NCBI RefSeq assembly: GCF_003018255.1
Contig: NZ_CP027440.1
DNA: 64,000 bases
Reading direction: 5' to 3' (one strand)
Source: Escherichia coli
GTDB taxonomy: Bacteria; Pseudomonadota; Gammaproteobacteria; Enterobacterales; Enterobacteriaceae
Positions within the stretch are counted from its first letter, which is position 1, and each line of letters starts with the position of its first letter. The position numbers and the translations under genes were made by a program. The notes under the pieces were generated by a model. It was not told the DNA's origin, did no database searches, and was given only the letters and a program-made list of their open reading frames with translations. Shown here piece after piece: positions 1,111 to 26,855 of the stretch.

Positions 1111-2365
1111 ACGCAGGCTGGAGCGTTGCGCCAATCCCGTCTTCGTCTGGCTGTAGTTTCAGTGCGTTACACAGAGTTTGCCGACTGGCATCTGTTATCT
1201 CAACGTGTATATCACCAGTAACTTCCCCTTTCACATTGATGAAGTCAGGTGAAATTTCTTTCGCACTGGTTTGCAGGCAAATCGCTCCCTCTCCGCGCAG
1301 GCGTTTCACTTTCAGTTGCACATGCGTTGCCGCACCAGTGATTAGCCACAGTTTTCCGCCATTTAGATTGATGCTACCAACACTGAAAGTGACACTGTCA
1401 CCTTTTACCGTACTGCCGTCGAGAATCAATACACCGCCCTGCTGTACAGTAATCGTTGATTGTTGCAGATCTGCGCCATAGCCAATAATCATTGAAGCGC
1501 CGTCCAGTAATGCAACACTACCGGTCAGTTCAACCGGTGCGCGATCTTCCTCTACGACAAAATTTTCGTCCGCGCTGGTGGGTGACAACAGGATGACTGT
1601 CCCACCTTGTATTACCGCATTTTCCAGCGTACCGGCATGCACTTCAGCCCGACCACCCACATTAACGGACAGGTTTTGCGTCTTACCGGAACTGTAGAGC
1701 TGAAGACCATCCGTCCCCAGACGATAAGTGGATCCATTCTCAACAATAGTGTCAGAGTCTTCACCACCGAGATTATTCATGGTGCCACCAGCAAGCAATG
1801 TATCACTGGCTTTCCCCGCCAGCATAAAAACGCCGCCCTGATTAATCTCACAATTGCTGGCTTCCCCACCTGGATACACCAACAATTCACCACCTTCATC
1901 TACCACGACCGCTGAGGTTGTCCCATTGACCAACAGGCCACCCTCTTGATCGAGAATAATTTTTTCCGCGCGATGGCCTTCCAGTACACGCAGGTTACCG
2001 CCATTTTCCAGCAACAAACCGCAGGCATAACCTTTATCAACGCTGAATTCACCTTCGGGATGGCGGCCATTAACCGTAGCGAGCGTAGAGAGACTAATTG
2101 CGCCTCCCTCGGACTGAACAATATCTGTGGCAATGGCACCGTCGCTGACCGATAGCGTGCCATTGTTGCCGTACTGTGTGCATTTGGCGATCCCACCGGT
2201 TGCCACTTTCAACCAGCCAGCCCCCGTGACCACGGTATTTTCGGCTCTTCCGCCAGCTTCAACAATTAACTCACCTTCAGTAAGTTGCGTCGCGCCAATG
2301 ACCTCGCCGGTCTTAACAATTTGCACGTTCCCGTCGCTCATCAAGTTTTTCGCATCAGATCCCAT
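1109..2365 (-). CDS. ydhQ: Autotransporter-adhesin-related beta-helix repeat protein, 418 aa
   Basis: ORF 1109..2365 minus; ATG at 2365 with AGGA-type RBS upstream; Gly/Thr/Val-rich degenerate repeats; position next to mdtK and valV. Confidence 0.85.
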   Translation of the reverse strand: MGSDAKNLMSDGNVQIVKTGEVIGATQLTEGELIVEAGGRAENTVVTGAGWLKVATGGIAKCTQYGNNGTLSVSDGAIATDIVQSEGGAISLSTLATVNGRHPEGEFSVDKGYACGLLLENGGNLRVLEGHRAEKIILDQEGGLLVNGTTSAVVVDEGGELLVYPGGEASNCEINQGGVFMLAGKASDTLLAGGTMNNLGGEDSDTIVENGSTYRLGTDGLQLYSSGKTQNLSVNVGGRAEVHAGTLENAVIQGGTVILLSPTSADENFVVEEDRAPVELTGSVALLDGASMIIGYGADLQQSTITVQQGGVLILDGSTVKGDSVTFSVGSINLNGGKLWLITGAATHVQLKVKRLRGEGAICLQTSAKEISPDFINVKGEVTGDIHVEITDASRQTLCNALKLQPDEDGIGATLQPA

Positions 2366-2618
2366 GATTTATTCCTTTGCTGCATCTGTGTGCCTTTATT
2401 GCTACCTAAGTGTAAAGGCTACGGAGGATTTATCCACGACAGATTTTGAGATGGTGGCAAACAACTCTGTTTAAACTCTGATACACGGATTATTGGGTTG
2501 TATCTGATGTAAATGCGATCCTGAATAAAAATCGCCCTTGCAAATCAACAAAATATAGCCAATTTGCTTAAAAGCTCTGCAAACGGTCGAAATAGCGCAG
2601 AAAATTACGTTTTGCCTC

Positions 2619-2647
2619 TTGCCACCTTCCCACTCTGCCGCTAATAT
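2619..2647 (+). promoter_or_regulatory. Sigma70 promoter of the valV-valW tRNA operon
   Basis: TTGCCA, 17-nt spacer, TAATAT, then GC-rich discriminator tcgtcccc about 25 nt before the tRNA 5' end. Confidence 0.5.
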
Positions 2648-2673
2648 TCGTCCCCGTTGTCACCTACAACGTT

Positions 2674-2750
2674 GCGTTCATAGCTCAGTTGGTTAGAGCA
2701 CCACCTTGACATGGTGGGGGTCGTTGGTTCGAGTCCAATTGAACGCACCA
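2674..2750 (+). tRNA. valV: tRNA-Val (anticodon GAC), 77 nt, encoded CCA
   Basis: Sequence GCGTTCATAGCTCAGTTGGTTAGAGCACCACCTTGACATGGTGG...CGCACCA recognised as tRNA-Val; anticodon loop cttGACat. Confidence 0.95.
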
Positions 2751-2754
2751 TCCT

Positions 2755-2831
2755 GCGTCCGTAGCTCAGTTGGTTAGAGCACCACCTTGACATGGTGGGG
2801 GTCGGTGGTTCGAGTCCACTCGGACGCACCA
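2755..2831 (+). tRNA. valW: tRNA-Val (anticodon GAC), 77 nt, encoded CCA; tandem copy 4 nt after valV
   Basis: Near-identical cloverleaf to valV with acceptor-stem and T-arm substitutions (GCGTCCG...CGGACGCACCA). Confidence 0.95.
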
Positions 2832-2938
2832 GATTTTCTTAATCTGGTCTTCTCCTTTTTCCCTCTGTTTCTTCTCTATATCCAATACGTTAAAAGATTT
2901 ACACTGTCTTCGTATGCGTTATCAGAAGGAGAATCGCT

Positions 2939-3244
2939 ATGGCAACTTTGTTACAACTTCATTTTTCTTTCAATGGCCCATTTGGCGACGCAATGGCTGA
3001 GCAGCTTAAACCGCTTGCTGAGTCGATTAATCAGGAACCTGGTTTTCTGTGGAAGGTATGGACAGAAAGTGAAAAGAACCACGAAGCCGGTGGGATCTAC
3101 CTTTTTACTAATGAAAAAAGCGCCCTTGCCTATCTGGAAAAACATACTGCCCGACTGAAAAATCTCGGCGTTGAGGAAGTTGTCGCCAAAGTTTTCGATG
3201 TCAATGAGCCACTTAGTCAAATCAATCAGGCAAAACTCGCCTGA
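2939..3244 (+). CDS. ydhR: Putative monooxygenase-like small protein, 101 aa
   Basis: ORF with AAGGAGAA RBS 6 nt upstream; sequence and position match YdhR. Confidence 0.85.
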
Positions 3245-3369
3245 CAGAATTTAATCAAGGGCGGTTAGCGCCCTTTTCATCCCTGTCTGAAATTTCTCAA
3301 ATTCTAAAAATCTCAACCAAACTTATCTGATAACACTAAATTCGAAAGAATGCGTACAGGTAAGTAACA

Positions 3370-20909: not shown

Positions 20910-20985
20910 ATAAGAAAACCCTTAAGTCTGTGCGACACAGGCTTAAGGGTTTCTACCCCATCCGGCGCTTATCTCCGGCACTCAC
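20910..20985 (-). ncRNA. rydB: Candidate small RNA RydB (boundaries approximate)
   Basis: Minus-strand intrinsic terminator (stem aaacccttaag/cttaagggttt then TTTTCTTATTTC on minus) in the sufA-ydiH spacer where RydB is known to map. Confidence 0.4.
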
Positions 20986-21174
20986 AGTGGCTTAGCTCTT
21001 GAAGGGGCGATAAGAATAATCTCATAAAGCTAACCCGCCGTTTTAACACAAACTGCGATTAGTATTATTTTTGAACAATATCAGGCGGATAGATAAGCAG
21101 TATTAAGAAGGTCATCGAACCTGGACGGAGGTTAATCCAGGTCGATTTGGCAAAATTGCGGCATTAAGTCAGGA

Positions 21175-26612: not shown

Positions 26613-26717
26613 ACGGTTATAAATCAACATATTGATTTATAAGCATGGAAATCCCCTGAGTGAAACAACGAATTGCTGTGTGTAGTCTTTGCCCATCTCC
26701 CACGATGGGCTTTTTTT
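26613..26717 (+). ncRNA. rprA: RprA small regulatory RNA (RpoS translational activator), about 105 nt
   Basis: Sequence ACGGTTATAAATCAACATATTGATTTATAAGCATGGAAATCCCCTGAGTGAAACAACGAATTGCTGTGTGTAGTCTTTGCCCATCTCCCACGATGGGCTTTTTTTT recognised as RprA, with terminal hairpin and T-run. Confidence 0.9.
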
Positions 26718-26855
26718 TAACATTTTTCCGCTTTGCTATCTCGCCCCTCACGCTTTCCAATAATGTTGCACAAGATACTGTGACTCTCTTCAAGCCGTCA
26801 GCAGGCTGATAATGTTATTTATATTTTATTGTTTATTTCATGCAGCCATTACACG

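Follow-up and report, generated by a model that had tools for sequence, protein, structure and literature searches.

The tandem tRNA-Val(GAC) pair in an Escherichia coli window corresponds to the valV-valW operon

Two tRNA-Val genes with the same GAC anticodon lie side by side in the 64,000-nt stretch of Escherichia coli DNA that we analyzed (hereafter, the window), and their acceptor and T stems differ. Which locus is this, how is it expressed, and does the divergence between the two copies have a meaning? We conclude that the segment 2619-2880 is almost certainly the E. coli valV-valW operon, a locus that is already known and has been characterized experimentally. These are textbook E. coli genes, for which bench work has already mapped the transcript, its starts and the way it is processed, and the discovery value of finding them here is small. 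The operon is of interest as a model case in which RNase P, and not RNase E, separates certain polycistronic tRNA precursors. This separation has been proposed as RNase P's essential role (PMC7049720). The present analysis makes small additions to that picture: a valV-type tRNA found only in Enterobacteriaceae among the matches listed, a core promoter under strong constraint, and a predicted hairpin that holds the CCA end of valW.

Identity of the locus and its spread in E. coli

Over positions 2535-2878 the sequence is 100% identical to E. coli K-12 MG1655. This interval covers the promoter, the two tRNAs and 47 nt of trailer after them, and the tRNA genes in MG1655 are valV (b1665, coordinates 1746435-1746511) and valW (b1666, 1746516-1746592). 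Over the wider interval 2400-2960 we counted four substitutions and one single-base indel relative to MG1655, all of them in the flanks and none within 2535-2878. The neighbors are also those of K-12: ydhQ precedes the pair on the opposite strand, and ydhR follows it. The UCCU spacer, the -10 and -35 hexamers and the start sites are the same as those published for K-12, and there are no differences within 2619-2831. Nothing in the analysis contradicted the identification as valV-valW.

The initial annotation had described two 77-nt tRNA-Val(GAC) genes 4 nt apart, and this reading held. ARAGORN found tRNA-Val(gac) at 2674-2750 and 2755-2831 on the plus strand as the sole tRNAs in the window. 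Both genes are 77 nt long and encode their CCA. The covariance model for tRNA (Rfam RF00005) recognized each copy over the full model (1-71), at 70.1 bits for valV and 69.6 bits for valW against a gathering score of 29 (E ~1e-13). Failure of either copy in this model had been named as the result that would speak against the pair, and both copies passed. The features of the operon are as follows.

2599-2617, plus strand: A/T-rich region AGAAAATTACGTTTTGCCT preceding the -35 hexamer; six Enterobacteriaceae sequences share an unchanged AGAAA at 2599-2603
2619-2624, plus strand: -35 hexamer TTGCCA, 5/6 to consensus; found by promoter scan and matching the published -35 (5/6)
2642-2647, plus strand: -10 hexamer TAATAT, 4/6 to consensus, after a 17-bp spacer; found by promoter scan and matching the published -10 (4/6)
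2648-2653, plus strand: G+C-rich discriminator TCGTCC, read from the sequence; invariant in six species from five genera
2654-2655, plus strand: transcription starts at two adjacent C, 7-8 nt past the -10 hexamer, from published primer extension
2654-2673, plus strand: 5' leader (19-20 nt) that RNase P takes off, with a hairpin within it
2655-2671, plus strand: leader hairpin of 6 bp (CGUUGU/ACAACG) in the predicted fold of the precursor
2674-2750, plus strand: valV, tRNA-Val(GAC), acceptor GCGUUCA/UGAACGC, T stem GUUGG/CCAAU; from ARAGORN, Rfam and identity to b1665
2751-2754, plus strand: intergenic spacer TCCT (UCCU), 4 nt, read from the sequence; the same in K-12, with no A/U-rich RNase E site
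2755-2831, plus strand: valW, tRNA-Val(GAC), acceptor GCGUCCG/CGGACGC, T stem GGUGG/CCACU; from ARAGORN, Rfam and identity to b1666
2828-2848, plus strand: hairpin from the terminator scan, in which the valW 3' end ACCAGAUU pairs with AAUCUGGU (8 pairs, 3 of them G-C)
2849-2880, plus strand: 3' trailer and termination region, C/U-rich and G-poor by composition; exonucleolytic removal from the literature

The locus is nearly universal in the species. A megablast search with 2300-3200 gave matches in 5,425 of 5,426 complete E. coli genomes, annotated as ydhQ, two tRNA-Val genes and ydhR. The 213-bp unit 2619-2831 was likewise present in 5,425 of the 5,426 and was at least 99% identical in 5,416. 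The genome-wide E. coli searches returned a median of two matched places per genome, which is what the off-diagonal match of one tandem tRNA copy to the other would give. One of the few E. coli genomes without an intact 213-bp unit is CEC96047 (NZ_AP026104.1, positions 1-486). There, '...CCATCCT' and then valW come right after the end of an IS3-family transposase gene, and valW is thereby cut off from valV and from its native promoter.

Gene order throughout the window is that of E. coli (mdtK, ydhQ, valV, valW, ydhR ... suf ... rprA ... pheST, thrS ... yniA). This order was confirmed against the near-identical strain JNE23-011, in a comparison whose base-by-base alignment was lost after ~24 kb at an indel.

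Promoter, transcript and 3' end

A promoter had been placed at 2619 in the initial annotation. The -35 hexamer TTGCCA begins at this position, and the promoter corresponds to the experimentally mapped valV promoter, whose hexamers and starts match (PMC2190699). In that work, Mohanty and Kushner located two starts by primer extension. Each is a C, they lie 18 and 19 nt upstream of the 5' end of mature valV, and a -10 (4/6) and a -35 (5/6) sequence precede them. Positions 2654 and 2655 are the only adjacent C pair that fits the published starts, with an uncertainty of +/-1 nt that comes from the counting convention of the paper. The consensus match alone was not above chance, with 2 overlapping registers in the window sequence and 1.1 +/- 1.0 in shuffles. 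The promoter is validated by the published primer-extension starts and by conservation across genera, and not by its match to the consensus.

We aligned the promoter region from E. coli, E. albertii, Citrobacter werkmanii, Enterobacter cloacae, Enterobacter sp. Bisph1 and Superficieibacter electus. Two segments were invariant across the alignment: CTTGCC (2618-2623) and a 24-nt block (2639-2662) that holds the -10 hexamer, the discriminator, the start and the first transcribed bases. The 17-bp spacer and the flanks vary freely in the same six species. The comparison gives good evidence for a core promoter that is functional and under strong constraint, the discriminator included. Further upstream, a pattern of A-tracts and T-tracts in the 2599-2617 region is kept in five of the six sequences, and the region is possibly a putative UP-element-like or Fis-type site.

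The G+C-rich discriminator that the annotation had claimed is present, with TCGTCCCC directly after TAATAT (TCGTCC(CC)). In stable-RNA promoters, G+C-rich discriminators correlate with stringent control and with supercoiling sensitivity (PMC8422995). The valV promoter shares a sigma-70 architecture, non-consensus hexamers and a G+C-rich discriminator with the stringent stable-RNA promoters tyrT, hisR and rrn P1. Unlike rrnB P1, which has a 16-bp spacer and a purine start, it has a 17-bp spacer and starts at a pyrimidine (C). From such features and from general knowledge of stable-RNA promoters, we infer that valV is probably under stringent-type control (ppGpp/DksA, growth-rate control via the discriminator). 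We consider this well founded but not a demonstrated fact, and we found no direct ppGpp/DksA or stringent-control measurement for the valV promoter in the literature searched.

Expression of the operon proceeds as follows. The sigma-70 promoter (TTGCCA, 17 bp, TAATAT, G+C-rich discriminator) directs initiation at the two C residues, ~19-20 nt upstream of valV, and yields one dicistronic precursor made of leader, valV, UCCU, valW and trailer. RNase P cuts at each mature 5' end, which at once separates the tRNAs and matures their 5' ends with no need for RNase E. PNPase and RNase II remove the trailer in the 3'-to-5' direction, followed by the usual trimming back to the encoded CCA.

Published experiments cover most of this pathway. 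A single dicistronic valV-valW transcript was reported, with a UCCU spacer that lacks an RNase E site (PMC2190699). In the same study, the precursors VW1 and VW2 (full-length) accumulated and mature tRNA fell in an rnpA49 mutant, and rne-1 had no effect; it follows that RNase P separates both tRNAs and makes both 5' ends. The 3' trailer was found to be removed by PNPase and RNase II (PMC2190699). Later papers from the same group confirmed the processing, and the operon has been used as a reporter of RNase P activity (PMC4176162, PMC7049720). Experiments in the literature have thus shown where transcription starts, that processing depends on RNase P, that exonucleases remove the trailer, that Val2 is aminoacylated and that Val2 occurs as two separable species.

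The leuQ leuP leuV, valU valX valY lysV and lysT operons resemble valV-valW in having short spacers that are not A/U-rich, in being separated by RNase P and not by RNase E, and in encoding CCA. They are not alike at the 3' end: the valU and lysT operons have Rho-independent terminators that are removed first by RNase P, whereas valV-valW is described as Rho-terminated, with exonucleolytic removal of its trailer.

The predicted leader hairpin is conserved in its stem. GUUGU/ACAAC is invariant in the six Enterobacteriaceae species, and the 5-nt loop is variable. The sites at which RNase E was found to cleave in the published rnpA49 mutant (-10, -8 and -6) fall in the loop and the 3' strand of this hairpin.

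Termination of valV-valW was called Rho-dependent on the ground that no recognizable terminator was present ('data not shown'), and not on the basis of Rho inhibition (PMC2190699). On Rho or bicyclomycin effects at valW, the literature search yielded this 2007 paper and no other. Our terminator scan found the hairpin at 2828-2848, which sequesters the CCA end of valW. It has a predicted free energy of -12.1 kcal/mol (z ~ -3.9), and none of 200 shuffled sequences was equally stable. The statement that there is no hairpin, and hence that termination is Rho-dependent, overlooks this statistically significant structure.

These observations raise the alternative that the 8-bp hairpin and the U/C-rich tract after it form a weak intrinsic terminator, which would end transcription instead of Rho or besides it. 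Equivalent hairpins that include the CCA end of the tRNA, although with different sequences, occur in E. albertii, Citrobacter and E. cloacae; the Citrobacter hairpin has 11 bp and is followed by TTTTCTCC. This recurrence, the stability of the E. coli hairpin and the indirect basis of the published Rho label are all in favor of an intrinsic terminator. However, only 3 pairs of the E. coli stem are G-C, and the tail CUUCUCCUUU is broken by C. Such a site is also about as frequent as expected by chance, with one in the sequence and 0.7 +/- 0.8 in shuffles. Five of the nine Enterobacterales loci have no hairpin, yet the trailers of all the loci are rich in C and poor in G, the composition one would expect if Rho loads there. 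In E. coli, the interval 2832-2880 contains 13 C, 27 T, 4 G and 5 A. Moreover, a trailer-bearing transcript (VWT) accumulates in the exonuclease-defective rnpA49 pnp-7 rnb-500 strain, which indicates that sequence downstream of valW is transcribed and is normally removed exonucleolytically. We regard intrinsic termination as an unlikely alternative, if one that keeps some weight. Given the few G-C pairs in the stem and the interrupted U tract, Rho is the more likely terminator.

Divergence of the two tRNAs

The acceptor 5' strands GCGTTCA and GCGTCCG and the divergence in the T arm, which the initial annotation had reported, proved exact to the base. The two are genuine isodecoders, with the GAC anticodon in common and with differences in the acceptor and T stems. 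valV and valW differ at 6 of 77 positions (raw positions 5, 7, 51, 65, 67 and 69), and these are confined to the two stems. Mapped on the cloverleaf of the covariance model, the six differences resolve into three base pairs with both sides changed: 5:68 is U:A in valV and C:G in valW, 7:66 is A:U and G:C, and 50:64 is U:A and G:C. Every difference between the copies is therefore fully compensated.

Thermodynamic folding gave -31.4 kcal/mol for valW and -27.6 kcal/mol for valV. When the tRNAs were folded singly by minimum free energy, the acceptor, D and anticodon arms came out but the canonical T arm did not, as is usual for tRNAs. Structure was consequently judged by the covariance model and by covariation counts, and not by minimum-free-energy folding.

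We scanned one genome per species for the common core of D arm and anticodon arm, which yielded at least 120 stretches in a small and arbitrary sample. The D/anticodon core is identical in many Gamma- and Betaproteobacteria, and the acceptor and T stems vary among the matches listed. Across 40 distinct related tRNA-Val(GAC) sequences, 99.6% of the cells at cloverleaf pairs were paired and 11 pairs showed double changes; the D and anticodon stems are invariant in this set because the search pattern fixed them. None of 500 shuffles reached the observed covariation score, and controls in which the pairing was slid gave 29-50% paired. The pairs of this family that covary most strongly include the three by which valV and valW differ, with 25, 10 and 18 double changes.

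None of these three pairs is at a known identity position for valyl-tRNA synthetase (ValRS). The determinants are A35, C36, A73, G3:C70, U4:A69 and a regular acceptor helix (PMC9976931). Both copies have the GAC anticodon, the discriminator base A, G3:C70, U4:A69 and acceptor stems that are fully Watson-Crick. A minor determinant, G20 in the variable pocket, was defined on tRNA-Val1 and is not found here: the D loop reads AGUUGGUUA, with U20 in both copies (in our numbering). E. coli Val2 naturally has U20, and it is charged in vivo. Aminoacylation of Val2 (valV, valW) in vivo has been put at 38-47% (PMC4176162, Table 3). The valV and valW tRNAs most likely do the same job, since the compensated changes leave the ValRS identity positions untouched.

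The RNA products are known as well. Val2, with anticodon GAC, reads GUC and GUU, is also named Val2A/Val2B and is encoded by valV and valW; the source gives the two names and the two genes without a one-to-one pairing (PMC7568582, supplement). Another paper that uses the name 'Val2A' was rejected as a source for the assignment because the name there refers to an unrelated ligand (PMC9023258). According to the literature, the two Val2 species are separable on a 2-D gel, and both Val2A and Val2B are among the E. coli tRNAs with acp3U47. The valW product is perhaps Val2A and that of valV Val2B.

All six Enterobacteriaceae species sampled (five genera) have a valV-type gene first and a valW-type gene second, separated by 4-12 nt. 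The valV-type form (GCGUUCA/GUUGG) was found only in Enterobacteriaceae among the matches listed. The tandem tRNA-Val(GAC) genes of Photorhabdus, Rahnella and Yersinia have D and anticodon arms identical to those of E. coli and acceptors of the GCGUCCG type. Their clusters differ from the divergent E. coli pair: among the matches listed, Photorhabdus has two and Rahnella three identical valW-type copies, whereas Yersinia aldovae has its own, lineage-specific variants. For Enterobacterales, this sample suggests that the valW form is ancestral.

Beyond the Enterobacterales, most beta- and gammaproteobacterial tRNA-Val(GAC) genes with the E. coli D and anticodon arms have A1:U72 (AGGCGCG.../...CGCGCCU) among the matches listed. 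Those of Enterobacterales and Pasteurellaceae have G1:C72 instead, again among the matches listed. One contig from a metagenome-assembled genome labeled 'Klebsiella pneumoniae' carries a tRNA-Val(GAC) of Burkholderiales type, with an AGGCGCG acceptor and no enterobacterial tandem; this contig is probably mis-binned.

Could selection maintain the two forms? The isodecoders might be functionally specialized in stability, modification, processing kinetics, or susceptibility to toxins or phage nucleases, with selection keeping both. If so, there would be selection for two distinct tRNA-Val(GAC), for example through stability and turnover under stress, RNase P kinetics in the precursor, or escape from nucleases. 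The fixed order of valV then valW in six species from five genera agrees with this idea, as the copies have stayed un-homogenized although they lie only 81-89 bp apart. The identical copies of Photorhabdus and Rahnella provide a contrast in the same direction, as does the greater predicted stability of valW. On the other hand, the differences are compensated stem pairs outside the ValRS determinants, and co-transcription leaves no room for separate control at initiation. Persistence of the pair may simply reflect a low rate of gene conversion over 77-bp repeats, and the species sample behind the pattern is small and arbitrary (among the matches listed). We consider specialization improbable. 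The un-homogenized pair is compatible with neutral persistence.

Weaker readings and other features of the window

Rfam also reported a match on the opposite strand. HPnc0260 (RF02194) matched 2793-2955 on the minus strand at full length, with 112.4 bits against a gathering score of 59, and it overlaps the 3' half of valW, the intergenic region and the ydhR start codon. Taken at face value, this would be an antisense small RNA of the HPnc0260 family, and a score of 103.5 bits in E. albertii might be read the same way. However, in its structured 3' part the model simply corresponds to a tRNA T arm plus acceptor strand in reverse complement. valV alone scores 36.6 bits, and in Citrobacter, Enterobacter and Photorhabdus the strand opposite valW-type tRNAs scores 54-68 bits despite unrelated flanks. 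We found no sigma-70-like promoter on the minus strand in 2800-3300, and the family was defined in Helicobacter pylori, where according to the literature the RNA is transcribed divergently from ureA. Because the complement of a tRNA also scores elsewhere and no promoter-like site was seen on the minus strand, we rejected a real HPnc0260 antisense gene, which we hold to be very improbable. What anchors the match appears to be the tRNA complement, and the match is probably spurious. As for the extra ~45 bits in Escherichia, the Rfam seed may contain Escherichia-like sequence.

Two matches below the Rfam threshold were also seen at the tRNAs. YrlA (Y RNA-like) spans both genes at 2698-2804 on the plus strand with 28 bits, and Plastid-ycf2 lies antisense to each tRNA within 2674-2829 on the minus strand with 30-32 bits. 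Both most likely reflect tRNA-like sequence and are not separate elements.

That one copy is a decaying duplicate or tRNA pseudogene has the difference between the copies as its sole support, and we rejected this reading as having a negligible chance of being correct, as both copies score ~70 bits with each difference compensated, both forms are kept across genera, and two separable Val2 RNA species exist, with Val2A and Val2B both listed as carrying acp3U47.

Elsewhere in the window, Rfam matches above the gathering score indicate four further RNA features.

20948-21008, minus strand: rydB, from the Rfam match alone
26613-26720, plus strand: RprA, from the Rfam match and from annotation at the matching position in a near-identical strain
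51397-51555, minus strand: STnc540, from the Rfam match alone
55396-55520, minus strand: Phe leader (pheM), from the Rfam match and from annotation at the matching position in a near-identical strain

Between thrS and yniD, at ~59300-60400 on the plus strand, the JNE23-011 annotation has a frameshifted pseudogene of a ShET2/EspL2-family type III effector. This is presumably the arpB pseudogene of K-12.
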